64,000 nucleotides of DNA from Azolla caroliniana (taxonomy: Eukaryota > Plantae > Polypodiophyta). A model generated the notes under the pieces. The model searched no databases and was not told the DNA's origin. It worked only from the letters and a program-made list of their open reading frames with translations. The first letter of the stretch is position 1, and every line of letters starts with the position of its first letter. The position numbers and the translations under genes were made by a program. Location of the stretch: positions 11,346,001 to 11,410,000 of the forward strand of contig JBHGNT010000003.1 in the NCBI GenBank assembly GCA_043228905.1. Reading direction: 5' to 3'. Positions 3,653-48,830 of this stretch are shown here, piece by piece.

Positions 3653-4696
3653 TGTCGTGAAGATTTTCGGCAATAGTGTGAAAATCCCATAAAACGTACA
3701 AAATCGAGTATGAATCACATAATACAATAATTGTGAAGATAACATTTTAAATAAATATCTAAGTACAAAATGATGGAGGTTTCGAATGCACTTTATTACA
3801 CGAGAAACAGACAACTAAATGTCAAGATATGAGGGTATAAAGTTTGTGAAAGGAAAAGAGAAAATTGTGAAATATCCCACATAGGCACGACAAATACGGC
3901 TCTCATCATATATAAGGTAGAGCAAAAGCTATTATCTTTGTGTCTATATGTGGAGCATAGAGAGTTCAAGGTAACTTGAACTAAGAGTGGAGGTGGGCTA
4001 GCTACTCGTAAAGGGTTTTGGCCAACCAAAACCGGACCGGCGATGGAGCCGGTGATCCGGCGCCAGTGAGACACCAGCATCCGACGGCAACCGGCGGCAT
4101 CCGGCGAACCGGCGTCCGGTGACTAGATAAATAAATATATAAATATATATACATATACAAGGAGGGCAAGTATGGATTCGAACCTTGCACCTCCGAGTTA
4201 GGAGTCAATTGGCTACCATTAAGTCATGCCATTTAGTTGAATGTATATTTCTATTATTGTACTTTTACATGTAAATTCTCATACATGAGAGCTAAAATGA
4301 GTGACATGGTTATCATGCACCACATGTAATACATGAGCGCCAAAAGGCAAACATGCATTTTATGCATGTCTTGTACCCTCACATACATCATATGCATGAG
4401 AGCATCTATAAAAGAAGGAAGGGGGAGGAGAAAAAACACGTTTTTTTGAGGTTATGAAATTAAGAAGAAGAAATTCGTTATCAAATTGATCGTGTAACTT
4501 GTTTCTTAAATCCAAAGATAAAAGTTCAATCAATCTCTCTCAATCGTTTAATCTCAACTTCTCTCTTTCCCAATATATCTTAAGTACTTTCTCACCAAAT
4601 CTTGTGCCAAAGCTTGTACCGACTTTGAATCCTTCCGGTCCAAAACCCCGGCGGTTCCGCCTCACGATCCGCGCGTAGTGACGGATCTTCACGACA
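3653..4696 (+). repeat. 5' LTR of B (1044 bp)
   Basis: Direct repeat of 8091-9188, roughly 98% identical by eye, 54 bp shorter in a GC-rich repeat patch. Confidence 0.95.
4165..4230 (-). promoter_or_regulatory. tRNA-like Pol III A/B-box cassette in the B 5' LTR
   Basis: Minus strand reads GGCA TGACTTAATGG TAGCCAATTGACTCCTAACTCGGAGGTGCAA GGTTCGAATCC ATACTTGCC. Confidence 0.7.
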
Positions 4697-4704
4697 TAAT
4701 TAAG

Positions 4705-4722
4705 TGGCGAACCCGACGTGAA
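4705..4722 (+). promoter_or_regulatory. Primer-binding site, tRNA-Trp
   Basis: TGGCGAACCCGACGTGAA, one mismatch to the complement of the plant tRNA-Trp 3' end (TTCACGTCGGGTTCACCA). Confidence 0.85.
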
Positions 4723-4757
4723 AGAGGCGGTAGGAAGGATCAAGTCGAGATTAATAC

Positions 4758-7700
4758 TTGGAGATGGCGTTCTCAAGCAACCAAGCGGGAGAGCTCGAAA
4801 GGATGATGCTAATCGTTGACCAAATGATGAGATCTTGGGACAACGACGCGAGCATGGAGAAGGCTGTCAATCGTGTCATAGAGCTCGAGGGCCAATTCGA
4901 TGCAAGGAACGTTACGAAGTTCCTTGATGCATATAGAAGGAAGATGAATCAGAGGGACGTGTCCGAGGCACGTCAAATCGCAAGCTTCAAGAGAGTTGTC
5001 ACCAACAACATCCAAAGACGCGTCATCGAGCTTCAAGAAGGTAACACAACATGGTCCGAGTTCAAGAAAACGATACTAGCGGAGTGCGTGACTGAAGACT
5101 CAACGAGGATGACTCGACATGCCCTGATGAAGTGGATAGAGAAGAAGAATAAGAAGATGAGCCCACGAGAAATCGGATGCGCCGACCCAAAGGTTATAGA
5201 GCCGATGGTGATCTTCACGGTGCCTCATGTGCCTTGGAATTTGAAATCGATACCGGTTCCGAGAGCACACCTTCCGAAGCTGATCGAGCTCTTAAAAGAG
5301 AAGGTGAGTATGGGAATTCTAGAACCGTCGAATGCTCCTTATTATAATAGGTGGTTCATGGTGCCGAAGAAGAATGGATCATTGCGATTCATCCAAGATC
5401 TTCAACCCGTCAGCAAGGTGACAATTCGAAATGCCGGAATCAGTTCGAGCGTGGACGAATTTGCCGAAGCGTTTCCGGGCCGGTCCATCTACTCCATTGG
5501 CGATCTCTACTCTGGATATGACCAATTCCAATTGGCGATTGACAATCGGGACATTACAACCATGAGGACTCTGATCGAGCTTGTGCGGATGTGTACCTTA
5601 CCCCAAGGCGCAACGAACTCGGTGGCTCATATGGTGAATGCCATGAATAAAGTCTTGAAGGATTGCATCCCGGACATCACGATGTCATTCTTGGATGATA
5701 TTCCGATAAAAGGATGTTCGGATGAGGAGAAAGATGAATCGAAAGATAAGGAAGGTTGTAGAAAGTTCGTTGCGGATCATATGAAAGATTGCGAGAAGGT
5801 GCTTCAAAGGCTCGAAGATGCGAATTTGACATTTTCGGGAGAAAAATCCGCATTCGGGCAACCGGAGATCTTGGTGGTAGGTCACTTGTGTGGAGCATAC
5901 GGCCGGAAGCCCTCGCCATCCAAAGTGAATGCAATCCAAGACATGAAAGAAGAATGTGAAAACCAAACGGAGGTTCAAAGGTTCCTTGGAGCGTGCGTGT
6001 TTTATCATATATGGATTCCTCACTACGCTCATGTCGCCGAACCGTTATATGGACTACTAAAGAAAAGAATGAAGTTCGAATGGCGAGAAGAGCACACAAA
6101 TGCGATTCGAAGATTAAAGAAACTGCTTCTTGAAGCTCCGGCACTAAGGAAGGCCAACTATGCCGAAGGGAAACCAATTTACGTGACCATAGATACAAGC
6201 CCAACCGGAATCGGGTGGGTCATCAATCAAGAAGGTGAAGATAATGCACGATATGCCGTCTGGTTCGGAGCAAAGGTTCTCAGTGAATGGCAACAAAGAT
6301 ATGCCCAAGTCAAGCGGGAACTTTGGGGTATTGTGTCGGCAGTGAAGACGAACAAAAATTACCTAATCGGGTCAGAAGTGATAATAGAGACAGATTGTCT
6401 CCCAATTCTCGGAATGGTCTCGGGATGTGCGACCCCAGATCTTGCTATGCTAAGGTGGATCGCCTACATCAAGTCTTTAAACCCAGAGATCCGTCACATT
6501 GCAGGGAAGAAGAACGCCATGGCTGACATGTTGTCGAGGGCAAGATTTTCAAATGGAAGTAACATGGTTTTGGAAGATGAAGATGTCGCCCTCGACTTCT
6601 TCAAGATGTCTCGATTGTCGGCGGAAGACCAGGACATGCAAACCCTCTATGCCTTCAACGAGAACGAGTACGAAGGAGAGTGGTTACTCATCGGTAGATT
6701 CCTAAGAACATTGACGATAGATGCTTCGTTGACAAAGGAGGAGGCCCAACGAATCCGAAAGAAAGCTTACCGATACTTCTTGAAGGGAGGATTCCTTTGG
6801 CGACATCCAAAAAGAAGGACAGGAATACCACGTAGAGTGGTGGTAAAGAAAGAAGAGCAAGAGACGCTGATGACCGAATTCCACGAGAGTGCTTGGGCAG
6901 GTCATAGAGGAACATGGGCGACGTTCGAAAAGTTGAGGAAGAAGTACTGGTGGCCAAGCATGTACAAAGATGTACTCCATTTCGTGTCCACATGCGAAAC
7001 TTGCCAAATATATTCAAATATACGTCATCGTGATAAGTTACAGCCGACATACCCACTCACCATACACTTCAAATGGATGGTGGATCTGGTCTCGATGCCA
7101 ATGGGAGTGGGACAAATGAAGTACTTAGCGCTGGCAAGGGAAGACTTGACAAATCAAGTGGAAGGACGAGCCTTGACAAATAAGACGACTTCAGCCGTTT
7201 GTAAATTTCTGCTTGAAGAGGTTGCTTGCCGATATGGATGTGTAGGAAAGATAGTAGCTGACCGAGGGGAGTTGGACGCGCGCGAAGCGACGGAGCTCTT
7301 CGAAAGACTAGGCGTGAAGCTCTCCCTCACAACTGCCTACAATCCGGAAGTGAATGGGAAGATCGAGCGAGGGCATGGACCTATCGTTAAAGCCATCGTA
7401 CGGGCATGCAACAGTCGAGTTGGGAATTGGCCACGACTATTACCCTATGCCTTGTGGGCCGATAGAACGACACATAGCTCGGTGACAGGGTATATGCCGA
7501 CGGAGCTTATGTATGGACAAAAGCCGATTATGCCCATCGAAAGGACGATCGCCTCATGGGTAATGATACCGTGGGAGAACGAGATGAGCCGAGAAGAGTT
7601 ATTAGCGGCGTGGATAAGGCAACTTAAAAGAAGACCTGAAGATTTAGAAAAAGCGCGAAAGATGATGGAGGCAGCCCGAGTAAAGAACAAAGTTCGGTTC

Positions 7701-8018
7701 GACAACACGCATCGACTTCGTCCCAAGAAGATTGAAGAAGGGGATTGGGTTTTGGTTTACGAGAGCACCCTTCACAATCAACACAGTACAACAAGGAAGT
7801 TTGCAAGAAGATGGTTCGGGCCGTATGTCGTGACAAGTGCCAACGATAATGCCACATACCACCTTGCGGAACTAGACGGATCAAGGTTGGCCGTACCCAT
7901 TGCGGGAAAAAGAGTAAGGATTTTCAAGAAAAGACAAGACAAGGATCCTGACCTCGATCACCTCGACGATGACCATAATAGGGCGGATGTAAATGAAGAC
8001 ATGGAGGAATCTAATTGA
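4758..8018 (+). CDS. Gag N-terminus fused in frame to RT-RNase H-integrase (no protease), 1086 aa
   Basis: Uninterrupted ORF with DLYSGY, LPQG, FLDD, IDTS, HHCC (HESAWAGH..CETC) and D,D,E residues. Junction near 5160 (KKMS|PREIGC). Confidence 0.9.
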   Translation: MEMAFSSNQAGELERMMLIVDQMMRSWDNDASMEKAVNRVIELEGQFDARNVTKFLDAYRRKMNQRDVSEARQIASFKRVVTNNIQRRVIELQEGNTTWSEFKKTILAECVTEDSTRMTRHALMKWIEKKNKKMSPREIGCADPKVIEPMVIFTVPHVPWNLKSIPVPRAHLPKLIELLKEKVSMGILEPSNAPYYNRWFMVPKKNGSLRFIQDLQPVSKVTIRNAGISSSVDEFAEAFPGRSIYSIGDLYSGYDQFQLAIDNRDITTMRTLIELVRMCTLPQGATNSVAHMVNAMNKVLKDCIPDITMSFLDDIPIKGCSDEEKDESKDKEGCRKFVADHMKDCEKVLQRLEDANLTFSGEKSAFGQPEILVVGHLCGAYGRKPSPSKVNAIQDMKEECENQTEVQRFLGACVFYHIWIPHYAHVAEPLYGLLKKRMKFEWREEHTNAIRRLKKLLLEAPALRKANYAEGKPIYVTIDTSPTGIGWVINQEGEDNARYAVWFGAKVLSEWQQRYAQVKRELWGIVSAVKTNKNYLIGSEVIIETDCLPILGMVSGCATPDLAMLRWIAYIKSLNPEIRHIAGKKNAMADMLSRARFSNGSNMVLEDEDVALDFFKMSRLSAEDQDMQTLYAFNENEYEGEWLLIGRFLRTLTIDASLTKEEAQRIRKKAYRYFLKGGFLWRHPKRRTGIPRRVVVKKEEQETLMTEFHESAWAGHRGTWATFEKLRKKYWWPSMYKDVLHFVSTCETCQIYSNIRHRDKLQPTYPLTIHFKWMVDLVSMPMGVGQMKYLALAREDLTNQVEGRALTNKTTSAVCKFLLEEVACRYGCVGKIVADRGELDAREATELFERLGVKLSLTTAYNPEVNGKIERGHGPIVKAIVRACNSRVGNWPRLLPYALWADRTTHSSVTGYMPTELMYGQKPIMPIERTIASWVMIPWENEMSREELLAAWIRQLKRRPEDLEKARKMMEAARVKNKVRFDNTHRLRPKKIEEGDWVLVYESTLHNQHSTTRKFARRWFGPYVVTSANDNATYHLAELDGSRLAVPIAGKRVRIFKKRQDKDPDLDHLDDDHNRADVNEDMEESN

Positions 8019-8090
8019 TCACCATAGCCGAAATCTCACTTTCTCTCTTCTTGGCACGTACCGGAGGACGTGCGGTTCGGTGGGGGTGGA

Positions 8091-9188
8091 TGTCGTGAAG
8101 ATTTTCGGCAATAGTGTGAAAATCCCATAAAACGTACAAAATCGAGTATGAATCACATAATACAATAATTGTGAAGATAACATTTTAAATAAATATCTAA
8201 GTATAAAATGATGGAGGTTTCGAATGCACTTTATTACACGAGAAACGGACAACTAAATGTCCAGATATGAGGGTATAATGTTTGTGAAAGGAAAAGAGAA
8301 AATTGTGAAATATCCCACATAGCCACGACAAATACGGCTCTCATCATATATAAGGTAGAGCAAAAGCTATTATCTTTGTGTCTATGTGTGGAGCATAGAG
8401 AGTTCAAGGTAACTTGAACTAAGAGTGGAGGTGGGCTAGCTACTCGTAAAGGGTTTTGGCCAACCAAAACCAGACCGGCGATGGAGCCGGTGATCCGGCG
8501 CCAGTGAGACACCGGCATCCGACGGCAACTGGTTTAGCAACCGGCGATGACGAGGTGACGGCATCCGGCGAGGCACCGGTAACCGACGGCATCCGGTGAA
8601 CCGGCGTCCGGTGACTAGATAAATAAATATATAAATATATATACATATACAAGGAGGGCAAGTATGGATTCGAACCTTGCACCTCCGAGTTAGGAGTCAA
8701 TTGGCTACCATTAAGTCATGCCATTTAGTTGAATTTATATTTCTATTATTGTACTTTTACATGTAAATTCTCATACATGAGAGCTAAAATGAGTGACATG
8801 GTTATCATGCACCACATGTAATACATGAGCGCCAAAAGGCAAACATGCATTTTATGCATGTCTTGTACCCTCACATGCATCATATGCATGAGAGCATCTA
8901 TAAAAGAAGGAAGGGGGAGGAGAAAAAACACATTTTTTTGAGGTTATGAAATTAAGAAGAAGAAATTCGTTATCAAATTGATCGTGTAACTTGTTTCTTA
9001 AATCCAAAGATAAAAGTTCAATCAATCTCTCTCAATCGTTTAATCTCAACTTCTCTCTTTCCCAATCTATCTTAAGTACTTTCTTGCCAAAGCTTGCGCC
9101 AAAGCTTGTACCGACTTTGAATCCTTCCGGTCCAAAACCCCGGCGGTTCCGCCTCACGATCCGCGCGTAGTGACGGATCTTCACGACA
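8091..9188 (+). repeat. 3' LTR of B (1098 bp)
   Basis: TG...CA termini, follows the PPT, followed by TSD ACGC. Confidence 0.95.
8657..8722 (-). promoter_or_regulatory. tRNA-like Pol III A/B-box cassette in the B 3' LTR
   Basis: Identical to 4165-4230. Confidence 0.7.
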
Positions 9189-33563: not shown

Positions 33564-33568
33564 TGTCA

Positions 33569-33638
33569 TGATATGGCAAGACTCGAACCCATGACCTTAG
33601 GTTATATGGGTCGAGCTCTTGACCATTAGATCATCTAT
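33569..33638 (-). promoter_or_regulatory. tRNA-like A/B-box cassette at the U3 tip of the H LTR (second copy 35500-35569)
   Basis: Minus strand reads TGATCTAATGGTCAAGAGC...AGGTCATGGGTTCGAGTC. Confidence 0.6.
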
Positions 33639-33999
33639 TGTAATACGTAGAATATTATTTTCATTTACATTTTATTATAGGAAATTAGTGTATATTCCAG
33701 ATTTCTCTAGAACATTCTAGAAGCTTCAGGATTACTCCTGAAAACACTATAAAAGAGGGCACTAGGCATTATGTTGAACCAAATTGGTTCAACGCCAGTC
33801 TTAAGCCTTTTAGCCACCATTATATATTCTCTTCATATAATACATATCTTTCTTATCATCACTCTCTCTCTCTCAATTTCTCTCTTTCTCTCTGTCTCGC
33901 TCACTTCTTCCTTCTCTCGAAGAAGTTCCACACCTCTCATAGTACTAATCCTTCGTTTAGTACTAATTCCTTCTCTGTCTCAGTACTGTTCATGACAGT

Positions 34000-34011
34000 T
34001 TGAACCAATTT
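34000..34011 (+). promoter_or_regulatory. Self-priming PBS of H
   Basis: TTGAACCAATTT is the exact complement of AAATTGGTTCAA (33781-33792), which lies 33 nt after TATAAAA (33748). No tRNA-type PBS is present. Confidence 0.8.
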
Positions 34012-34071
34012 TCCCTACCTTCTGTCTCTCTCATTTCCTACTAATCTTTTATTCCTCTTTTCTTTCATCCC

Positions 34072-35223
34072 ATGGCCACTGTTAGCGCTGAAGAATATCA
34101 ATCTGTTTTCTCGGAATTTCAATGCTTGAAGGAGAAGTTCCATGCTTTGGAACAAGAAAACCAACGGTTGCTGGGGGATCTTCAGCAAATCTCCTTAGAA
34201 AAGTAGCAAACGCAACAACAACATGGGGAACTTGCGTTACGCGTGCAACAACTCGAAGCAACCATCGTAGCGATGCAACAACAAGGGCCCGGAACACAAG
34301 GGATTCATAAAGAACCCAAGATTGGACTTCCCATGAAGTTCAATGGAACACGATCGCAGTTTAGAGGGTTCCTTAACCAGGTACAATTAGTTATTCAAAT
34401 GCATCCTTCCCGATATCCCACCAATGCATCACGAGTGGGTTTAGTAGGCACTTTGTTAAGTGGCTCAGCATTGTCATGGTTCGCTCCACTATTAGAAAAG
34501 GAATCTCCGTTACTCAACAATTTTGAAGAGTTTCTAGGTGAGTTTAAAGCATGTTTCGTAGATACTGACAGCATCAGGACCGCAATCAACAAAATCCGGC
34601 GATTACGCCAAGGTGACCGTCCAGCCTCCGCATACGTTGCAGATTTTCGCCTCCTCGCCGTCGATATCCCTTGGGATGATCAAGCATTGATGGAGCAATT
34701 CCATTATGGTTTACGCAACAACGTCAAGGATTTACTATTGACCTTCCCCGAAGAGCCAAAGTCCTTAACAGAAGCAATCAGTCGCGCGGTGAGATGTGAC
34801 AACCGCCTCTTTGAGCGACGTTTGGAACGACAGCTACAGATACCGAGGGCAAGGTCAGAGCCCACCTACACCTCAGTGGTGGCAGGACCTTTTCCGAGGG
34901 AGTCATATAATGCGCCTCCAGCGAATACTCCGACTCCTATGGAGATTGACACTACACGTCGTCAAGGGCCATTATCCGAAGAAGAAAAGCAGCGACGTCG
35001 TACAAATCGACTATGTCTTTACTGCGGTGGACCAGGACATATCGCAATAAATTGCCTCCATAGGCCAAGAAGACAGGTAAACCAAATAGTCGCTAGTTCT
35101 AATTGTACTAAATCTGAGCCTATTTCAGTAGGGATATCTGATAGTCCTAATAGTACTAATATCCCAGATCTAGCAAACAAATTTGATGTCCTTAGTCAGT
35201 TAGAAGAAGAGTTAAACGACTAA
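34072..35223 (+). pseudogene. H gag with CCHC knuckle (two early TAG stops)
   Basis: KFNGTRSQFRGF, LRQGDRPASAY, PTPMEID, CLYCGGPGHIAINC. Confidence 0.9.
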
Positions 35224-35255
35224 GTCCAGCCAAAATAGGAGCCGTTTGGTTGGAC
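35211..35255 (+). promoter_or_regulatory. Candidate -1 gag-pol frameshift: G_UUA_AAC with 11-bp stem
   Basis: 6-nt spacer, then gtccagccaaa/tttggttggac. Conserved in J (49668-49712, minus). Confidence 0.75.
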
Positions 35256-35361
35256 AGCCCTAGATCTGTGCAGCCCATTAGTGGTTCCATTCCCTCTAAG
35301 TAAGTTAGTGATGTGTTCGTAGCCCAAGTAATAGTTAGTACTAAAAGTACCCCTCCAGTAC

Positions 35362-35494
35362 ACGTTCGAGTGGACCAAATCGAGGGGACTCGATTCTCTT
35401 TGTGCTGATGTCAGGTGTGATGCGGCCACCTATTTGCCGTACTGGCAAAGCTCGCAGAATTGGTGATCCGAGAAGGAGATCTTGGGGATGTAAC
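35362..35494. repeat. 133-bp copy of the left flank of H (33431-33563, copia G integrase)
   Basis: Near-identical sequence at offset 1931, including the TSD. Confidence 0.95.
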
Positions 35495-36412
35495 TGTCAT
35501 GATATGGCAAGACTCGAACCCATGACCTTAGGTTATATGGGTCGAGCTCTTGACCATTAGATCATCTATTGTAATACGTAGAATATTATTTTCATTTACA
35601 TTTTATTATAGGAAATTAGTGTATATTCCAGATTTCTCTGGAACGTTCTAGAAGCTTCAAGATTACTCTTGAAAACACTATAAAAGAGGGCACTAGGTGT
35701 TACGGGCATGACCATATAATATCCCGTGGTGAGAATTGTCGTAGTATTCTATACACGTGGATAAGTGTGAGGGTTAAACAAAGAGTCTAAAGAAGGGGAG
35801 GATTACTTTTAATCCTCGGGATTGAGACAACCCATGAGGCCAAGTGTGAACATGGCTGGGGGCCTTGAGAATTACTATAAATAAGAGGCCTAGCTACCCT
35901 CATTGGGGGCATGCATTGACTACGTCGAGACTCTGTCCGTGAGTGGAACGACTCTTGTAGCAAGCGCGCTATCGTCCAGGTACGACTCGACGCCAAGGCG
36001 GTGGTATGGGACGCCGATCGAGGCTCGAGTCCGTCTCGATCCCTTCGCTCGGGGGTGGTCGGGTGGATCGGCACCCTTCTTTCTCTCTTTTCTCTCTATT
36101 CTTTCTAGATCTATCATTGATATATCCTTATTTTATGCTTACTTTAGTACCTAATCTCTAATATTTGGTATCAGAGCCTATGTACTAACGTTTCTTTTGG
36201 TTTTCTTTTTGTCTTCGCGTGGGATGGCGATTGATCGTTGTGCGGTCGCCTTCATGCAGACAAGGATTAGCGAAAGAACTTCGGTAAATTTTCCTTAATT
36301 TTTTATCTAATTTTTCTTCTCCCTTCTATACATGTGTATACTTAATATGTAGTTTTTTTTTCATATATTCAATGATGTTGACGTGGTATTTAATTGGTTA
36401 TCTTAAACGTTT

Positions 36413-36670
36413 ACATATGTCCACGAGGTCAATACCTCGTTTGACATATAAATCATATGTGATGAGTGTCGTATGCGTACGAGGTTACAACCTCAATTGC
36501 GTATTACGTTCACGAACATATGTTACGTTCGCGTACGAGGTCAATACCTCGATTCGTTCGAAATGATATGCGTTGGATTTACTATGCGTAAGAGGTCAAT
36601 ACCTCAATTGCGAATTACGCTTAACCTTATTTTCGGATGTTTCGTGTGCGTAGAGGTATATGCCTCGATT
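36413..36670 (+). repeat. Array of 5 stem-loop units (GAGGT-N4-ACCTC) in the leader of I
   Basis: Cores start at 36425, 36481, 36537, 36592 and 36653. Confidence 0.9.
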
Positions 36671-37863
36671 ACGTATCCCGAATACATCATTGTTGGCTAT
36701 ATAAAAAAAAAACGATTCATTTAGTATACGCATATGTGGTCACTTATATACGTCTCTGATCGTATATATGTGATATATTGACATATGTGTATATTTTAGA
36801 TTACGTGATTCATATCAAATGTTTTCCTAATTGGGGAGAGGATTTTGGTGGCCGTCCTCACATTTTTGTGAGAAAGGCGTTGTCACCATCCCTTTTATCA
36901 ACAATTTTTATTGTTGAAATTCCCGTTGGTCACTTTGATCTTTCGTTACGTAACGAACCTCGTATAGCCAAAATGATGTTGAATACGTCGGGCTTGATCC
37001 ACATCAAGTAGGGTCGCTCTAATGACACACGTATCCAACATCTCCCCTCGTTACATGGATACGATGCCACCATGAGCTCGTTCTTACGAGCGCCATTCGT
37101 AATGACGTGACCATGTGATGGGCCACATGAGCCTACGAAGACACAAGGGCTCATTCGGCTTGACCATTAGGTTACACTTTGGCATATGCCATTGTACTTA
37201 CGAGGCTTGAGGGTAGGTAGCGTACAACCATAGTGGGTAATAAATGAGGGAGAAATAAGGCCACTTGACCTATATGTTTCTTTTAAAAAAAACATATAGG
37301 GGCAAATGCCTCGCATATCTCGAATACGCCTCAAACATTAAACATTCAAGACGCGCAATCTACTTGGTTGGCTAAAGTGTTTAATGTATTTGTCCTCGAG
37401 GTCTGGAGTTCAAATATGACCAACACCATACAACATCGTTGATACATATGACTATAATACATGTTTAGACTTTAGGTCTAAGTGCACTTCGGGGTCCTCG
37501 TAATAGGACTTAAAGAGCCGAAACCACATATGTGGGCACAGAAACATAGTTATTGTTAACATTTTTTTCGTGTATAAACTATTCATGACGCGAACATACA
37601 TGGTTGAGCCTCGGGGAGCCGCCATGAAAAAAATCGATATAGAGATAAGGGAAAGGCATTCATTTGTCACCCCCATGGTTTTTAAAACACCTCTGTGTTA
37701 CCATAGTAACCTGATCTTGAACCTCATCTCATACGTCTAGAGGGGTATTGACGTGAGATCATGATATCGATTAATGTTTGCCCATGATATGTTTACACCA
37801 CGACAAGATGTTATGACTATTTGTCTGACCTTATCTTATTTCTTTGCCAGAAATAATCATTCA

Positions 37864-40800
37864 ATGGCTCAGAATAACGACCCGATGCCCTCCGCTCAAG
37901 CGGAAAGACCTCAAGGAAATCCTCCTGGGACAATGTCCATTGAGGCGTATATTTTACAAGTACAACATTTCCTTAGTTCAACCGCGCAGCAGTTGACCGA
38001 ATTTCGGCAATCTCAAAGTGCTCTCGAGGCACGAGTCATTAGTCTCCAAAATGAGATTAATAGACCTGATGAGCGTCAGGGTGAACCATCATTTGTCGTA
38101 AAGCCATTTACGGGAGATAAAAAGGAAAGAACCGAAGAAGCAATCTGCACGTGGCTGGGCCGATGGGAGTCTCATTTTGAGCTCTATCCCACGCCAGATA
38201 GTACGAAGATTGCATATGTCGGCCGAGAACTAGGGGGTAAGGCCGCCGCTTGGTGGCGTGGGCTCCGAACTTTGGGGAGATTGCCCGAGACCTAGACAGA
38301 CTTTGTCACAGTTTTCAAGGGTCAATTTCTACAACCTCCCTCTCGAACCGAGGCAGCACAAGCTTTAATGAACCTCTCTAGCAGGAAGTTTTCCTCGCTA
38401 GAAGACTATGTCCACCATGCTAGAACCCAAATCCAAAAATCGGGTCTAGAAGGGGACAATTGGTTAATAGCTTGTTTTGTCAATGGCATCCCCAATTCGG
38501 ACTATCACTGGATAGTGCACGATAAGGATCCAAAATCCTTCGAAGAGGCCGTTGAGATAGTTCTTCGCTATCAACGCACTTCGAAGAAGGACCATAACAA
38601 ACCCAACGAAGCGCCCGGGACTAAGCAGTCGCAATTCGTTGGGAAACGCAAGACACCCAACGAATTCATGGATCGCGATTATAAGCGACAACATCCTTTT
38701 TGCGTATTCTGCAAAAAGAAGGGTCATACAAAAGAGCAATGTCGTAAGCTCCAACGAAAAGAGCACGACGCCAAACCTAAAGCTACAGATCATAAAGGTC
38801 AGATTCCTAATGTCCTTCAGGTCTATACACATCATTTGAGTAATTGTCAATGTTCTTTCCCTCATTATGTATTGGGTCCCAATGATTTACTACGTGCAAA
38901 CGGGTATATCAATGGATCTCCCGTACAATTTTTATTTGATTCGGGAAGCTCACACAATTTTGTGAATGATCGTTTGGTACAGATATGGGGAATCCAACCC
39001 ACCGTAAGTGATCACACCTACACGGTGCACTTGGCTGATGGAAGAGTACAACACATCAACGGGGCGATTCATTCTTTAGGAATTTCTATTGATACCTATA
39101 TAGAGGAAGTAGACTTCCATGTAATGAATCTTAGTACCACCGATGTAATACTGGGTTATCCCTGGTTTTATAATAAAAGCTCTTCTTTATTTATTGATTG
39201 GGTTCGCCATTCCATTTTTTTTGTACTCAACGATTGTACGCATTTTATTCAATGTGTAACAAAACAATCCCTCTCGATTGTTTCCTCGTGTCCATCAATA
39301 TCTGAGTTGTCTTGTTCTACGTTATTTTATTGTGTACTTGATCCGGACATTCACGTTTACAATATCGATAATGTCTCGGGTCAATTAACATATTTTGAAC
39401 AAAAACAACTTGATGAAATCGTAAACGATTTTCGTGATTTTTTTCCGAGTGAACTACCCGATGGTTTACCTCCTAAACGTAATATAGACCATCGTATAGA
39501 TATTGTACCTGGCATTGCACCCATTAGTATACCTCCGTATCGCCTAAGTCGATCTGAAGAGGATGAGGTAGCTAAGCAACTTAAGGACTATTTACGAATG
39601 GGTTATATACGTTATAGTAAATCTCCATGGGGTGCACCAGTTCTCTTGGTTAAAAAGAAAGAGGGCACATGACGTATGTGTATTAATTACCGACGCTTGA
39701 ATCAAGTGACGATCAAGAATTCGTACCCATTGCCCCGGGCTGACGATCTAATTGACCGTCTCCAGGGAGCTCGGTATTTTACGAAACTTGATCTCCGTAC
39801 TGGCTACCATCAAATACGAATAAGTGAGGACGATGTTCCTAAAACAACATTTCGTACGCGCTACGGCCATTATGAGTTTTTGGTTATGCCTTTTGGTTTG
39901 ACCAATGCTCCGGCTACATTTCAACAAGAAATGAATGACATTTTCCGAGAACAACTTGGAAAATTTGTCGTTATCTTCTTAGATGATATTTTAGTTTATA
40001 GCCGTACATTACAAGAACATGCTAGACATGTCCGCTTTGTTTTACAAATATTGCGTGACAAACAATTTTACGCGAAGATCTCAAAATGTGAGTTCTTCAA
40101 GAAATCAATTACTTATCTTGGACATCTCATAACCGAACGAGGAGTTGAAATTGATCCTTCTCGCATTGAGAAAATCAAGCTTTGGCCCACTCTTCGGAAT
40201 ATTCGAGAAGTTCGATCATTCCTTGGTTTTGTTGGATTTTTGCGAAAATCTCTTCGTAGTTACTCACAATTGACGACGCCGTTTACTGATCTTCTAAAAG
40301 GTCAAACACGTAAGTCTACAAAACCTATTGTGTGGAATGCTACACTAGACCTCGCCTTTAAGGAACTCAAGGACTTGGTATGCAAGGCTCCTTCACTTCT
40401 TTTACCCGATCCTTCAAAACCTTTTGAGGTTGAAACCGACGCAAGCGATTATGCTATAGGTGCTGTCTTGTATCAAGATGGTAAACCAATAGCATTCGAG
40501 AGTAAGAAACTTGATTCTGCTCAATGTCGGTATACCGTTCAAGAAAAGGAATTATTTGCGGTTATACATGCGCTCAAAACATGGCGCCATTATCTTTATG
40601 GAAATCGCTTTGTGGTAACTACGGACCACGAGTCCTTGAAATATTTTTGTGACCAACAAGACCTGAAAGGTCGTAAGGCACGATGGGCTGATCTCATCCA
40701 GGACTTTGATTTTTCCATACGATATCGTAAAGGTTCCATGAATATTGTCGCTGATGCACTAAGTCGCATCCGTGAAGTTAACATGCTTAGCTTCACTGAA

Positions 40801-42525
40801 ATAACATCAGATCTTTATGATCACCTTCGAGGAAAGTATCCTGATGACAATTATTTTGCAAAATACTGGGCAAGAGTCGAGTCTGGAACAGACACCACCA
40901 CACCCTCGAAGGAATACTTCCACATTGCTAACGATCTGCTCTACCGTAATGGGAAGGTTTGTGTTCCAGATTTACCTGAGGTCAAAAAGAGAATTCTTTT
41001 TGAATGCCATGATGCACCCTCAGCAGGGCACCCTGGAATACATCGTACACTCGTTCTCATCTCCACTCAATTTTATTGGCCTAAGATGCGTCCTGACATA
41101 CATAGCTATGTGACTAAATGTCACCAATGTCAGGTTAACAAAGCCGAGCGACTTAAAGCCGCAGGACTTTTACATCCCTTGGACATTCCCAATAATAAGT
41201 GGGAAAGTATATCCATGGATTTTATTGTTAGCCTTCCTCGCACCCAAAAAGGTCATGATGCCATATGGGTTGTGGTTGACAGACTAACTAAAATGGCCAG
41301 ATTTATTGCTACTAAAACCACGGTAACAGCTCCTGAATTGGCTTACCAATTCGTTGATGAGTTATTTCGTTTTTATGGGTTACCGATGGATATCGTGAGT
41401 GACTGAGATCCGAAGTTTACTAGTGACTTCTGGACGCAAGTCTTTAAGAAGTTAGAAACTACGTTGAGCATGAGCTCCACGGATCATCCTCAATCCGATG
41501 GACAGACAGAACGAGTAAATCAAATTATTGAGGACATGCTTCGAGCATACGTTGGTGCAAAACCAACAAAATGGGAACGTTACCTCCCAATTTTGGAGTT
41601 TGCTTATAACAGCTCCAAGCATACGTCGACGGGATATAGTCCTTTTATGTTGATGTATGGATTTCAGCCACGAGTCCCGATTGATGTTAATATACATCAT
41701 GATGAGTTGCGAAGTACGCAAAACTTTCTTCGGGATATGCAAGATATGTTGCATATTGCACGGGATAATATAAAAACAGCTCAAGATAGAGCGTGTTTTT
41801 ATGCCGATCATCACAGGCAACCTCGTGTATTCAGCCCTGGACAGAAGGTATTTTTACGTGTACCTCACAATTCTAAGACATTGTCTACGGGTAAGTGCGC
41901 TAAGTTAGCCCCACGGTTTTGTGGACCTTTTACAGTCCTCAAACGCATTGGATCATCAGCCTATCGTCTCGCTCTTCCCGATGGTGTTGGAATCCATCCA
42001 GTCTTTCATGTAAGTCGTCTAAAAGAACTTCTAGGTTCTGGCGACAATACAGTTACAACTGAAACTCTGGTTACTTCTGAAGATTTATCTTCTAAACCAC
42101 ATGTACCAGAAAGAATTCTCGATGTTAAAACAAAAAAATTACGTGCTAAGGAAATCCGAGAATTTAAAATAAAATGGATGGATAAATCAATCAAAGATGC
42201 CACATGGGAACGCGAAACGACTCTAAGAACTAACTTCCCTAACTTTCCATTGCAAGAGTGCAATGTTTTAAAGAGGGGGGCATGCATTGACTACGTCGAG
42301 ACTCTGTCCGTGAGTGGAACAACTCTTGTAGCAAGCGCGCTATCGTCCAGGTACGACTCGACGCCAAGGCGGTGGTATGGGACGCCGATCGAGGCTCGAG
42401 TCCGTCTCGATCCCTTCGCTCGGGGGTGGTCGGGTGGATCGGCACCCTTCTTTCTCTCTTTTCTCTCTATTCTTTCTAGATCTATCATTGATATATCCTT
42501 ATTTTATGCTTACTTTAGTACCTAA
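37864..42525 (+). pseudogene. I gag-pol in a single frame: gag, CCHC, protease, RT, RNase H, integrase, chromodomain; three in-frame stops (38293, 39670, 41404)
   Basis: [42 protein letters not shown] motif, PERILD..IKWMDKSIKDATWE. Confidence 0.93.
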
Positions 42526-43461
42526 TCTCTAATACTAGGCATTATGTTGAACCAAATTGGTTCAACGCCAGTCTTAAGCCTTTTAGCCACCATTGTATAT
42601 TCTCTTCATATAATACATATCTTTCTTATCATCACTCTCTCTCTCTCAATCTCTCTCTTTCTCTCTGTCTCGCTCACTTCTTCCTTCTCTCGAAGAAGTT
42701 CCACACCTCTCATAGTACTAATCCTTCGTTTAGTACTAATTCCTTCTCTGTCTCAGTACTGTTCATGACAGTAACCGGCTTTGGATAGGTGCGTTATGCC
42801 GGCCTTGCTGAGGTGTCCAAGTCATCCATGCCATAACGATGACACGGGGATATCAACCAAAAATAAGTCACCCTATTTGAGTGTGACATATAAAGGGTAC
42901 AAAGAGTGTACCTTTCGTCCTCAAGCAAGCAGGAGGTTCCCTTTGTGGAGTGTCCACCCTCCTAATGAGAACCCGTCACGGATGCCGGCATCATCAAGTT
43001 GTCCGACTGAGATCATGGGACTTGAAAGCTCAGGAATGTGTCGGACGTTGTGTAGTATGAGTGTAGAGCCACCCGGAAGGTTGAGCTCTACGGTGTTTCA
43101 GGAATAGTACTAAGCAAAGAGAGAATTAGTACTAAAGAAGAGAAGTACTATTAGTACTAAGAGGACGGGACTGCATAAGATTCCCGAGAGAGAAAGAGAG
43201 AAGAGGAGAGAGAGATAGCGAGGATGAGAGAGAGAGGGATGATGATAATAGCTAATATATTATGTGAAGGATAAGTACAAAGTGGCTAAGAAGCTTAAGA
43301 CTGGCGTTGAACCAATTTGGTTCAAAACAATGCCTTGTGCTTCCTTTTATAGTGCTCTCAGGAGTAGTCCTGAAGCTTCTAGAATGTTCCAGAGAAATCT
43401 AGAATATACATTAATTTCTTATAATAAAACATAAATGAAAATAATATCCTACAAATTACAA

Positions 43462-43530
43462 TAGATGGTGTGATGGTTAAGAGCTCGACCCATATACTAT
43501 AAGGTCATGGGTTCGAGTCTTGCCATATCA
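43462..43530 (+). promoter_or_regulatory. tRNA-like A/B-box cassette in the J LTR (second copy 51161-51229)
   Basis: TGGTGTGATGG (43466-43476) ... GGTTCGAGTC (43510-43519). Confidence 0.6.
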
Positions 43531-46217
43531 TGACACTATCCCCCCTTTATGACGACAAGTGGAACGAGTCGACGCTGATTGAGGACGGGGTTTGTCGGGA
43601 TACTATCGGTGAAAATCAGCAAGAATATCCTGAGCATTGGCGATGGGCTCCCAAGTAACTTTGCTCAGACTATAGCCGAGCCAATCGACCAAATAAGAAA
43701 GTTTGTTGCGAACAAATTTGGAGTCGAGGATGGCAGCAACTTCATACTCCGGACCGGCGTCTAACTCAAGCGGGGGCGGCGGTGGTGTAACACGATCGGG
43801 AATAGTGTTTGCTTTATAAGGTTCAAGAAGAGAACTATGGAAGACTGGATGTATCAAGGCAAAACGTGACATCATTAACCTTACCAGTAATACGGAAAGG
43901 ACCGAGTCATCGATAATCCAACTTGTCGCACGGTCGAGTAGTCTTGATGTGATGACGTAAAAGCCATATTCGATCTTCGATGGCAAAAGAGGAGGGAAGC
44001 CGATGACGATCTGCGTAAGTCTTCCGTGTTTGTTGAGCATGAAGAAGATGAGTAGAGAGATCCATCTGGATCTTGCGTAGTCTCTCCAAATGATCCTCGG
44101 CACGAGGATTGGTACGTAGCTCCGGGGTGTCGATCACCGACCAATGAGGATAAGAACCGGTATAAGTGTAGAATGGGGAGACTCGAGTCGAGGAGTGAAC
44201 AACATTATTATACGCAAACTCCGCAAAGTGGAGAATCTCGGCCCAATAGTCTTGTTGATAACTCAGGAAACACCGAAGATATTGCTCTAGTGTTTGGTTT
44301 GTTCATTCCACCTACCCATCGGTCTGAGGATGGTAGCCAGAGGAGAGGTTGCAAGAGACCTTGAGCATCTTGAAGAGATGCTGCCAAAATTTGGAGACGA
44401 ATTGCGGTCCTCGGTCACTGATGATACTGTCTGGGAGGCCATGATGTCAAAATACCTCACGCATGACAATGGCGGCGGTTTCCTCGCTAGTGATGGCCTT
44501 AGTACACGACACAAAATGTGTCATCTTCGTATATCGATCGACGACGGTTCAGATAGCATCGAACCCCTTCGAGACCGGCAAATCTGTGATAAAGTCAAGA
44601 CAAATAGACTGTCACGGCTTACTTGGAATCGGTAAGGGTTCCAACAAGCCATATGGAAGGTGTCGTGGCATCTTTGCTCGGCAGCAAGCATCACAGGTCC
44701 GAACGTAGTCGTCGACAAAACGTCGCATATGGGGCCACCAAAAGGATCGTTGAACTAGATCCAACGTCTTAGTGCTACCGAAATGTCCCGCCATATGGGT
44801 GTCGTGACAACTTTGGACGATTTGAAGGCGACAGGAGCAATCGAGGACATATACAAGCTTTTTAAAGAATAACAAACCATCATGATATTTGAATTGTCGG
44901 TAGTCCATACCTTGTTGTTGAGACTGAGAACAGGATGCCCGAGAGGTATCAATGTGCACCAGAATGTCTTGAGCAAAATTGTCCGTCTTCAAGTTCACAC
45001 ATATGGTGTCAGTAATCTGGGAATCCATTGGGGTGTGAAAAATCCGCGTTGTGTGCAATCGTATTGGTCCCAAGATTACTTGCTTTTGATTATCGAACGT
45101 TGGGTCACCAGGACGAGGTGCAAGATATGAATGCCGTGATAGTGCATCTGCCTTTCCTTGCTGCTTCCCCGGTCGATATGCGATTTTGAAATCAAAACGT
45201 GTGAGGAATTGAGTCCACCTAGCTTGCCGTCGATTTAGCACACAAGCGTTCTGGAAATAAGAAAGATCCTTGTGAACACTAAAGACGATGACCTGATGTG
45301 GAGAGCCGTCCAAAAAATGCCGCCATTGCACAATAGAATCCATGATGGCTAATAACTCCTTGTCATGTATTTCGTAGTTGATTTCCGCAGCATCAAATTT
45401 GCGCGAATGGAAAGCCACATGATGTAACTCTTCTTTATCTCCTTGTTGAGAAAGGATACTACCGAGGGCGAAATCTGATGCGTCGGCCTCCATGATGAAT
45501 GGTTTGCTTGTATCCACATGAGCTAGAATAGGTGCTGATTTAAAGGCTTTCTTAAGATGCCGAAAAGCCATGTCCGCTTCATTGGACCAAAGAAATGTGT
45601 GTCCCTTCTTCGTAAGTTGTGTGAGAGGTAAAATAATCTTCGAGTAATCTTGTATAAACTTGCGGTAGAAGTTAGCAAAACCTAGAAAACATTGTACATC
45701 TCGTACTAACCGTGGAATTTGCCACCCTAGCACAGTTTGGACTTTAGCTGGATCCATGGAGATGCCCTTTGAGGAGATAACGTAGCCTAGAAATTCCACT
45801 TGCTTGCAGTCAAAGCTACATTTTTCTAGCTTGGCATAAAGACCATTCTCGCGGAGTCTATTTAGTACTAATAGTACATGAGAATCGTGCTCTTCCTGGG
45901 TCTTCAAATAAATCAATAGATCATCCAGATAGATGATCAAACAGATATCCAAGAGGTCTCTGAATATATCATTTGCCATGTGTTGGAAGACTACAAGTGC
46001 ATTGGTTAGACCGAACTGCATAACAGTATATTCGAAATGCCCATACCGCGTGCGAAAGGCAGTCTTCCATTCATCTCCTGGTCGGATTCGCACGAGGTTA
46101 TACGCTCCTCGTAGATCGATTTTTGTAAAAAACTTGGCACCATTAACTCGCTCTAAAAGACTTGATATAAGAGGAAGTGCATACCTATTCCGGATGGTGA
46201 CCTTATTTAAGCCGCGG

Positions 46218-48830
46218 TGTCATGAAAATACAACGAGGATACGTGAACTTGAGGCAGGACCCCGGGGCCTCCGACCGGAAGATATCAGATTCGTATGTTT
46301 ATATTAAACAATTAATGGGAAATGAGAAAGATTGACAAATTTCATTAACAGATAGAAAAGAAAAATTACAATCAATCCCAAGATTGGGATTACAAAAGTT
46401 TTATCTTAAGGAGATTACTAGAATAATAGATTAGAGGAAATAAGTGATTATGATTCTTGAGTGATATGGCTTTGATAAGGAATTTTGGATTTTGAGAGAT
46501 ATGGCTTCTCTAGGGAAATTTTAGGGTTTATGGCTTTCGTAAGGAAATTTGGATTTTTGAGTGTTATGGCTTCCGTAGGGAAGATTAGCGTTTTTGAGTG
46601 TTATGGCTTCCGTAGGGAATTTAGGGTTTATGAGAGTTATGGCTTCCCTAAGATAAGGGAGCTGAGAAGGAAAAGAAAACAAATAATGGAGAGAGAGTAT
46701 CAGTATAGGAAAAAAAATGGAATATATATGGAGTTCCCCATTGATCATATGCAAGTCCACTTTTTGTTGCACGGCCTCTACTTTTAGTTCCATCTATTTG
46801 TTGCATGGCTTTTTCTTTTAGTTGCATGGCTTTTTCTTTTAGTTGCATCTATTTTTAGTTGCATGGCTTTTTCTTTTAGTTGCATCTATTTTTAGTTGCA
46901 TGGCTTTTTCTTTTAGTTGCATGCGACCGTCCACATGACCTTTTACTTTAGTTTTCTTCACTTCACTTTAATTAGCCACATGATCCTATCATCCGTTCGG
47001 TTTGCGTCCAGCCTTGTCGGGTCGCTAATTCCGTTTGGTCGCCGATTGTCGCCGCCGGTTCCGGTTTGCTTACCGGCCGGTTTCTAGTTCTGCTTACCGG
47101 CCCGGGCCCGGTTTCCAGTTTTGCTTACCGGCCCTGTTCCGGATTGCTTATCGACCTATTCCGGATTGCTTACCGGCCGGTTTACGGTTTTGCTTATTGG
47201 CCCGGTTCCGGTTTTGCTTACCGGCCAGTTTCCGGTTTTGCTTACCAGGCCTTCCGGATTGCTTATCGGCCGGTTCCGATTTGCTTCCTAGCCGGTTTCC
47301 GGTTTTGCTTACCGGCCAGTTTCCAGTTTTTGGGAACTTGGCCACCATCATCCATCAAGACAAAGTAGTCAAAGTGCTCTTAGCACAAATGAAAAATAAG
47401 GGTCTCAAGGTGCTTATATAGCTAGGGCCTTAAGTTTCCTATCTATGTAGGATAAATAATAGTTGAATTTTCCCTATCTTCTCAAACATCCATCTTCTAT
47501 AACATGCCATTAAGTTAATATAAAGTACTTATTTTATTATTTATTTTTTTACATAGTGTGTGAAGATTCACACGACATTCGCCCCCACCAAACCTGCACA
47601 TCCACGGGTATGTGCCAATTGTGATGAGGCTCCATTTTTGTTTACTTTAATTTTTCGTTGATGTACCCGAACCGCCATTGCCATTTGATCCACCATATTC
47701 TTCGTTTACTCTTTGCATTTCCATGACCGGTTGTCATGGCTCTCTTTGCTCCTCTTGAGCATAACGCTTCACTCCTTATGCATGTGCCACCTTCATCTCG
47801 GCCATCTCCTTGGTCATCTAATTTTCTTTTATCATTCTTTCTTGTTCCATGCATGTCTTTCAAAAGCCTTATCGAAATACTATGGTTGAGTACTCTTAGC
47901 GATTCATTATTTAAGTGACCACATTGCATGCTTCCCACTTTGTCTACTTTCTTGGTATACTCTTGTGTTGGAATTGTTCATGACTTCTATGCTAGTATTA
48001 TCCTTGTTAGATTTTGTGATCACATCTTTCGTATCCACTTGGCCCACATCTTTGCTTTTTGAGGTTTGCTTGGTCTCTTTGTCGCACAGATTTTCTTTTG
48101 TCTTCATGCTTTGCTTAACCTCTTTGTCGCACACATGGACTTTCGTCATTTTGCTTTGCTTTACTTCCTTGTTGCACACATTGGCTTTAACCCTTGCTTC
48201 CTCGCCGCCATCGTCCATCTCTTGGGTCTTACATCGGTTAATGCCCAAGTCTCTCAAACGAGTGTGGAGGAATTTTGTAATTTGGCGTTGCCTTTGTCGT
48301 GCTATTCTTTGCCACTTCCACCTTATGGTTGTTCGTATTAGCTTTGACCTTTGTTTCTTCGCCGCCACCTTCTGTCTCTTGGGTCTCACGTTTGCTTTCC
48401 GACACATCTGCCCAAGTCTCTAAAACAAATGTGGAGAAAGTCATGACACGGCCATCCGTCATTGACTGGTCCTTAGCCACATTTGACTCGATGTCGTTTT
48501 TCATGGCTATCTCCTCAATCATGTCGGCCTCACATTTGCTTCCCGGCCGATTCCGGTTTTGCTTACCGGCCGATTTCCGGTTTTTGGGAACTTGGCCACC
48601 ATCATCCATCAACACAAAGTGGCCAAAGTGCTCTTAGCACAAATGAAAATGAGGGTCTCAAGGTGCTTATATAGCTAGGGCCTTAAGTTTCCTATCTATG
48701 TGAGATAAATAATAGTTCTATTTTCCCTATCTTCTCAAACATGCATCTTCTATAACATGCCATTAAGCTAATATAAAGTACTTATTTTATTATTTATTTT
48801 TTTACATAGTGTGTGAAGATTCACACGACT
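46218..48830 (-). mobile_element. Gypsy K (B/C/D lineage): full 3' LTR 46218-47577, remnant internal region, partial 5' LTR 48534-48830
   Basis: 4-bp TSD GCGG whose removal restores DYRGLN of the J RT. Same hairpin + PPT motif as B, C and D at 47578-47618. Confidence 0.85.
46460..47330. repeat. Three minisatellite blocks in the K LTR
   Basis: ttatggcttccgtagggaa (about 46460-46650), ttgcatggctttttcttttag (46801-46921), ccggttttgcttaccggcc (47056-47330). Confidence 0.85.

Follow-up and report, generated by a model that had tools for sequence, protein, structure and literature searches.

Pol III promoters in LTRs have so far been described for miniature non-coding elements, which they drive. 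The closest such system is Helenus/TRIMp3, in which the LTR contains a tRNA-derived sequence with conserved boxes A and B that has lost the function of a tRNA (Kojima, 2024; PMC10886601). According to the relevant sections of that paper, these elements are 311-1263 bp long and non-coding, it is proposed that the promoter drives the element and that there were multiple origins via insertion of a SINE into an LTR, and one of the families comes from a plant, Selaginella; in the LTRs of its supplement, including Helenus-1_SMo (120 bp), the boxes lie in sense. The same sections state that 'not a few' LTRs in Repbase resemble part of a tRNA, describe an analysis of TRIMs under 1 kb only, and argue that the autonomous partners need Pol II (PMC10886601). 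Similar LTRs may thus be present in Repbase without having been analysed.

In the parts of the respective studies that deal with tRNA-type promoters and chromatin, the tDNA barrier of fission yeast requires an intact A box, its orientation being irrelevant (PMC2040200); at a promoter-proximal boundary formed by a B2 SINE, neighbouring expression is lowered (PMC8136502); and repression and roadblock effects of tDNAs are documented in yeast (PMC4228148). Within the open-access literature, largely its main texts, no description of Pol III promoters in the LTRs of full-length plant Gypsy elements was found. The sections of PMC6317226 and PMC2864245 on the Phygy and Tcn1 lineages mention no tRNA-like LTR sequence, and the words 'tRNA' and 'SINE' are absent from the main text of a study of transposon expression in Physcomitrium (PMC7466625).

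A and B boxes in the LTRs of two Gypsy families

The window, that is, the whole stretch of 64,000 bases that was analysed, was scanned on both strands for a B box (GGTTCGANYC, without mismatches) combined with an A box (TRRYNNARYGG, at most one mismatch) at a gap of 28-45. The scan returned six matches, which are exactly the six sites that the initial annotation had proposed as tRNA-like Pol III cassettes, against a mean of 0.03 and a maximum of one match in 100 block-wise dinucleotide shuffles. With two mismatches allowed in all, the window still yields six matches and the shuffles now yield 1.18 on average and up to 6, which leaves the strict cut-off as the only one that discriminates. The six cassettes are:

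4165..4230, minus strand: cassette in the 5' LTR of element B; A box 4216-4226, B box 4175-4184, gap 31
8657..8722, minus strand: cassette in the 3' LTR of element B; A box 8708-8718, B box 8667-8676
33569..33638, minus strand: cassette in the 5' LTR of element H; A box 33623-33633, B box 33580-33589, gap 33
35500..35569, minus strand: cassette in the second LTR of element H; A box 35554-35564, B box 35511-35520
43462..43530, plus strand: cassette in the 3' LTR of element J; A box 43466-43476 (one mismatch), B box 43510-43519
51161..51229, plus strand: cassette in the 5' LTR of element J; A box 51165-51175, B box 51209-51218

All six are antisense to their own elements. The TATA boxes of the six LTRs lie at 4407, 8899, 33748, 35679, 43351 (minus strand) and 51050 (minus strand), at a distance from the near edge of the cassette of 177 bp in B and 110-111 bp in H and J; in the latter two elements the cassette occupies the extreme 5' end of the LTR. 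The box spacing of a tRNA, which had been claimed for both families, is found in the gaps of 31 (B) and 33 (H), and the antisense position some 110-180 bp upstream of TATA is borne out for the window by the measured 110-177 bp. The six sites belong to three elements and two families, and only the two families are independent because paired LTRs are copies of each other and the similarity between H and J is about 80%. As had been stated, the LTRs of B and H have no other sequence in common, blastn between them giving no match. The window elements E, A and I and the Copia element have no cassette in the scan.

The host elements B, H and J

The elements and the features that surround their cassettes are the following:

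3653..9188, plus strand: element B, putative Phygy-type Gypsy, with LTRs at 3653-4696 and 8091-9188
4030..4125, no strand: CCGG-rich array beyond the B cassette as seen from TATA, of unequal length in the two LTRs
4253..4415, plus strand: CATG-rich module that includes TATA (4407) and separates the B cassette from the Pol II start
33564..42770, plus strand: element H, putatively Tcn1-type, with target duplication GTAAC; gag only, without pol
33710..33727, plus strand: heat-shock-element-like motif GAAnnTTCnnGAAnnTTC between the H cassette and R; TATA at 33748, region 33710..33755
33781..34011, plus strand: self-priming pair in H, 33781-33792 (start of R) being complementary to 34000-34011 (primer site)
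43098..51234, minus strand: element J, putatively Tcn1-type, with pol, LTRs at 50798-51234 and 43098-43535 and target duplication CACCG

Element B is likely to be of the Phygy type, as judged from its target duplication and the absence of a chromodomain. The 4-bp duplication (ACGT/ACGC) fits the NCGN target preference reported for Phygy (PMC6317226), and the Chromo domain has no match in the B ORF. The nearest named relatives of the B pol are proteins of Riccia (about 55-60%), which, with the target duplication, was read as pointing to a moss-like bryophyte as the probable host. The copy is a deletion derivative of 5.5 kb, in which the start of ORF1 (the first ~130 residues) is fused in frame to pol; the fusion forms one open frame of 1087 aa (4755-8018), most of gag and the protease being deleted. 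U3 in B is placed from TATA alone. The region next to the B cassette (4053-4152) contains 11 CG and 8 CHG sites, and the cassette separates this CG/CHG-rich array from the promoter.

Element H sits inside a Copia integrase gene, and its second LTR is split by element I (35698-42538). The primer site that follows its 5' LTR is complementary over 12 nt to the LTR at position 218, located 33 nt past TATA, and since this self-priming site marks the start of R, the U3 position of the H cassette is fixed independently. J possesses a mismatched version of the site, with no exact match; the C-terminal residues 876-987 of P0012, a protein that bears a chromodomain, match J at 43950-43621 in tblastn. 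Self-priming, a chromodomain and an LTR of about 440 bp are described for Tcn1 in the sections on this lineage in PMC6317226 and PMC2864245, and the self-priming site together with the match of J to the chromodomain-bearing C terminus indicates that H and J are probably Tcn1-type elements (H being without pol).

In addition, 134 bp of the left flank of H (Copia integrase, 33431-33563) are repeated with 98.5% identity before the second LTR (35362-35495), so that pol may have been lost through repair or conversion starting at the 5' end. Because of this repeated flank, H was judged to be a rearranged copy, and the idea that it stands for a family with gag only was discarded. Several further features accompany these elements: tandem repeats of ~112 bp in the internal leader of element I (36409-36778) recur, 80% alike, at positions 1-378; a small element with direct repeats of ~300 bp (94% alike) is inserted in J at 47279-48829; and the Copia integrase contains an AT-rich insertion (32618-32900) in which ARAGORN predicts a tRNA-Arg(TCT) at 32622-32717, without support from Rfam.

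Each of the four H/J LTRs carries, ~20 bp before TATA, a heat-shock-like motif of four perfect units (33710-33727, 35641-35658, 43372-43389 and 51071-51088) that is found nowhere else in the window. The motif resembles the consensus of heat-shock elements, and the H/J family may be heat-inducible.

Presence within the families and among relatives

The H and B LTRs were aligned with public assembly contigs from three DNA runs, in which summed depth does not equal copy number. The H family is very abundant in these contigs, and the depth over its cassette is similar to that over the rest of U3 and above that over the internal region. For B, where 4070-4164 was skipped as a repeat, the B-box half is covered at up to 40-70% of the depth of the CATG region; the dip at 4210-4240 is due to differences of this particular copy, and the loose ends of the alignments continue into A-box sequence. 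Thus, the cassette is a family-wide component of both H and B and not a sporadic insertion. The lack of any excess of depth over the cassette in either family gives no sign of extra free copies. None of the 15 listed variants that reach 15% or more in the B contigs falls in the B box, and two variants in the A box (4219 and 4224) agree with the consensus.

An alignment of the B integrase region with 18 relatives led to the best 80 of 207 Phygy loci from metagenomes, with protein identities of 56-93%; R at position 57 was admitted to the B-box consensus once these relatives had first been inspected. Their 3' LTRs (50 segments, 37,539 bases) contain 16 cassettes with at most one mismatch, distributed over 14 loci, compared with none in 20 shuffles, and their pol regions (196,519 bases) contain none at this threshold and two at two mismatches. 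Spacings from 24 to 45 were tested, and only 32 (11 cassettes) and 33 (5 cassettes) occur. Across all 432,208 bases of the best 80 of 207 loci, each of the 22 matches (at most one mismatch) has a polypurine tract or primer site no farther away than the length of an LTR.

The antisense position upstream of TATA, which had been proposed as a rule, holds for all six cassettes of the window and fails among the relatives, where 10 of the 16 cassettes in 3' LTRs are antisense and 6 are sense. Sense cassettes are located in U3 in L013/14/16, L026 and L085/86 and, in three cases (L040, L045 and L058), downstream of TATA. In nine antisense cases, the distance from B box to TATA is 191-285 bp. Two to three cassettes per LTR are present in L026, L040, L045 and L058. 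L040 (3015-4052), L045 (6340-7380) and L058 each have three cassettes, of which one lies in sense after TATA and the other two are antisense within U3, and in L040 the B-box half is duplicated. The carriers are coding elements of 5-7 kb with a TATA box; in the ten whose internal region is covered, gag-pro and pol each form a long intact ORF, with ORF1 weakly supported by Pfam.

In an integrase tree built by a quick method, the cassette is present in 18 and absent in 30 of the 48 scorable rows, scattered over the tree, which amounts to 8 gains or losses, at least 7 of them forced by well-supported branches; the other 35 of the 83 rows are unscored for short LTR cover, among them L016, which does bear a cassette. 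Given its absence from 30 of 48 relatives and from the window elements E, A, I and Copia, the cassette is dispensable. Viral contigs contain no relatives of B and 10 distant relatives of J (36-45%), which lack the cassette at two mismatches, and in contigs of prokaryote genomes neither the H/J LTR end nor the integrase of element I finds a match. The breadth of sampling for Tcn1 is accordingly that of H, J and I and the assembly-contig alignments.

Conservation of the boxes

Among 21 non-redundant cassettes, the mean frequency of the commonest base is 0.74 in the A box and 0.86 in the B box, compared with 0.55 between the boxes and 0.46-0.50 in the flanks; the AGGT located four bases before the B box is conserved as well. 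In 10 pairs of related cassettes, differences affect 5 of 110 defining box bases, 27 of 100 free box bases and 64 of 190 positions of the 5' inter-box sequence, a comparison that is biased in that the cassettes were picked through their boxes. When sites were picked by the A box and RGGT only, the B box had no mismatch in 12 of 19, one in 6 and three in one (the rows of this set are partly dependent, and two off-register repeats of known sites were dropped). The notion that the boxes are kept better than the rest of U3 thus stands for the pairs of related cassettes (5/110 vs 64/190) and not for the A box of H and J, which differs between these elements at 3 of 11 bases, compared with 12 of 114 in the rest of U3. 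The terminal 26 bases of H and J, which include the B box, are identical. As far as these comparisons go, the evidence for selection on the boxes appears to be good in Phygy and weak in H/J.

These patterns also bear on the possibility that the cassettes are passive relics, namely, SINEs or tRNA pseudogenes that inserted in the U3 of a founder and were then copied along, the apparent conservation of the boxes stemming from selection before the capture and from discovery via the boxes. On such a scenario, which is unlikely, the boxes would not be expected to stay intact where the orthologous inter-box sequence has diverged by a third, nor the spacing to stay at 31-33, and B boxes outside the selection criterion are intact or one base off in 18 of 19 sites. 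Moreover, free copies outside elements are found neither in about 46 kb of flank nor in the rest of the window (a small sample), and the cassette depth does not exceed that of other U3 parts in H or B. What speaks for relics is the patchy presence, with its 8 gains or losses on the quick tree, the decay of the B box in L018 and its loss by deletion in the B-like LTR of L087, the T-rich tails that follow many cassettes (11 of 21 have a T4 no more than 50 nt from the B box) and the lack of extra A-box conservation between H and J.

Loss of the tRNA fold

ARAGORN calls none of the six window cassettes as a tRNA, and none in 15 related loci, and the Rfam tRNA model does not match the B or J cassette at E values up to 10. 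When the stems are placed in tRNA register, pairing in the cassettes is at the level of swapped partners for the T stem (0.52 vs 0.54), the anticodon stem (0.42 vs 0.43) and the D stem (0.49 vs 0.51), and only the acceptor stem shows a weak signal (0.42 vs 0.38; p 0.04, uncorrected). The initial annotation was therefore correct in describing a degenerate cloverleaf with retained boxes, whereas the CTCCTAA anticodon-like loop to which it drew attention is present in B and is not retained in the relatives of B. A common isotype or anticodon was rejected, the loops differing among cassettes. Retention of the boxes and their spacing, combined with loss of the stems across diverged families, is what would be expected of a promoter element under selection.

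The H/J cassette folds as one long hairpin, with z scores of -4.7 (H) and -3.6 (J) against shuffles. This hairpin of ~66 nt lies at the 5' end of the LTR (33569-33634 and the equivalent positions in J), immediately after the polypurine tract, with the B box in one arm; in H, the z scores on the two strands are -4.7 and -4.5. Of the 21 cassettes, about one in three has a stem around the B box that outperforms almost every swapped partner, and about half fold no better than the null. For the H/J cassette, an RNA role is accordingly conceivable.

More generally, the cassettes could give rise to a short structured RNA, or to an antisense RNA over the polypurine tract and integrase end, that tunes silencing or replication of the element. 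An RNA product of this kind, which we regard as distinctly unlikely, would account for the folding of H/J and for the B-box hairpins, as well as for an A box that is kept as well as the B box, as suits real initiation, and it would also fit the T4 that about half of the cassettes have at up to 50 nt from the B box. Orientation and folds nevertheless vary between families, the window copies are free of T4 for 143-1339 nt, and no inter-box RNA sequence is common to the cassettes; the plant CAA start motif is found in only 4 of 21. RNA read depth is 1-6 within the H LTR (reads from a related species) and 0 on B. A candidate antisense Pol III RNA beside the H cassette was rejected, as the opposite-strand reads lie on the host Copia integrase, whose sequence runs in that direction. 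The absence of an RNA fold common to all cassettes favours a role at the DNA level.

Origin and possible exchange between families

The H/J cassette has the bases after the B box (TTGCC) in common with several Phygy cassettes and is 41-48% identical to those of L050, L053, L062, L068 and L083, compared with 30-33% for that of B. Together with the U3 modules that cross families, this leaves convergent capture by the two families, as originally worded, unsupported. No common body or inter-box RNA sequence is found among the 21 cassettes, and the sequence downstream is AT/T-rich. Their origin may lie in one old SINE-like source that was passed between LTRs or in several separate captures.

CATG-rich, partly palindromic modules are also found just before TATA, in the window (4253-4400), in L012, L039 and L058, and in L040 and L070-L075. 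Because the owners of these modules are distant on the integrase tree, U3 modules seem to have been exchanged, although chimeric short-read assembly could mimic this pattern. The cassettes would derive from tRNA- or SINE-derived DNA and would have spread between families by the swapping of U3 modules.

Possible functions at the LTR promoter

Judging from sequence, the cassette probably has a function of some kind. Our tentative proposal is that the A and B boxes in the LTR form a barrier that shields the Pol II promoter from silencing in nested repeats. The boxes would serve as a putative landing site for TFIIIC, TFIIIB and Pol III, assembly of the full Pol III complex being suggested by the retention of both boxes at a fixed spacing. 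At a distance of about one nucleosome upstream of the Pol II promoter, this complex would maintain a boundary poor in nucleosomes; the boundary would shield the LTR promoter from silencing, and selection would act on the boxes. The occurrence of both orientations and of two to three cassettes per LTR suits a DNA-level role, and the free orientation, the tandem copies and the fairly constant distance to TATA suggest an action on neighbouring chromatin. With intact boxes in either orientation, the cassettes would agree with what is required of the fission yeast tDNA barrier. Against a barrier, one has to count the lowered expression beside the B2 SINE, the dispensability of the cassette, the box losses in L018 and L087, and the divergence of the A box between H and J; furthermore, a Pol III complex in the 3' U3 could be a roadblock to the genomic RNA, which has to cross this region.

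Roadblocks are central to a further possibility, to which we attach little probability, namely, that the Pol III complex is an attenuator that represses the LTR promoter or stops read-through from upstream; under stress, Pol III would shut down and the repression would be lifted, and in H/J the heat-shock-like element would drive a burst. The precedents of tDNA repression and roadblocks in yeast (PMC4228148, in the sections concerned) are matched by a head-to-head geometry at 110-177 bp from TATA and, in 4 of 4 H/J LTRs, by a heat-shock-like motif between cassette and TATA, but B has no such motif, and the conservation data fit a protective role equally well. Finally, transcription of the element from LTR to LTR by the Pol III promoter, as in Helenus, is hardly credible despite the sense cassettes of relatives in U3 and after TATA, since all six window copies are antisense and the carriers, as 5-7 kb coding elements with TATA, exceed the length that Kojima's text considers feasible for Pol III.

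If the barrier reading is correct, the cassette would be a cis-encoded anti-silencing device that borrows TFIIIC and TFIIIB to keep a Pol II promoter open inside heterochromatic nests. It is also conceivable, and is put forward with more reserve, that autonomous Gypsy elements of two distant lineages repeatedly took up, multiplied and exchanged Pol III promoters as a portable U3 barrier. A Pol III module that recurs beside the Pol II promoter in either orientation, at times in tandem, suggests a cis-acting strategy against silencing or else a stress switch, and because the H/J and B families are present in very high copy number, many potential TFIIIC sites would run through the repeat blocks. 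This bears on the question of a chromatin-barrier role for tRNA-type promoters in plants.

Comparison with known systems

The cassettes resemble Helenus in that A and B boxes are located inside the LTR. They differ in their carriers, which are 5-7 kb gag-pol Gypsy elements with a Pol II TATA box and not short non-coding elements, and in being mostly antisense in U3 and sometimes tandem, whereas the boxes of the Helenus LTRs given in the supplement are in sense. Cassandra TRIMs, as far as they are covered in PMC10886601, likewise have a Pol III promoter in a plant LTR, which is however derived from 5S (boxes A, IE and C), belongs to a non-autonomous element and starts the element's own transcript; being antisense and in U3, the window cassettes cannot start the genomic RNA in this way. 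With the cen1 tDNA barrier of fission yeast, as described in the relevant part of PMC2040200, the cassettes have in common the presence of both boxes, independence of orientation and the unimportance of RNA identity, but the former is a real tRNA gene in a host chromosome and the latter are non-folding cassettes carried by a mobile element. In the corresponding part of PMC8136502, the B2 SINE is likewise a tRNA-derived mobile sequence, located ~200 bp upstream of a Pol II start, at a methylation boundary; it is, however, a free SINE beside host genes that lowers their expression, whereas the cassettes described here are part of the LTR itself.
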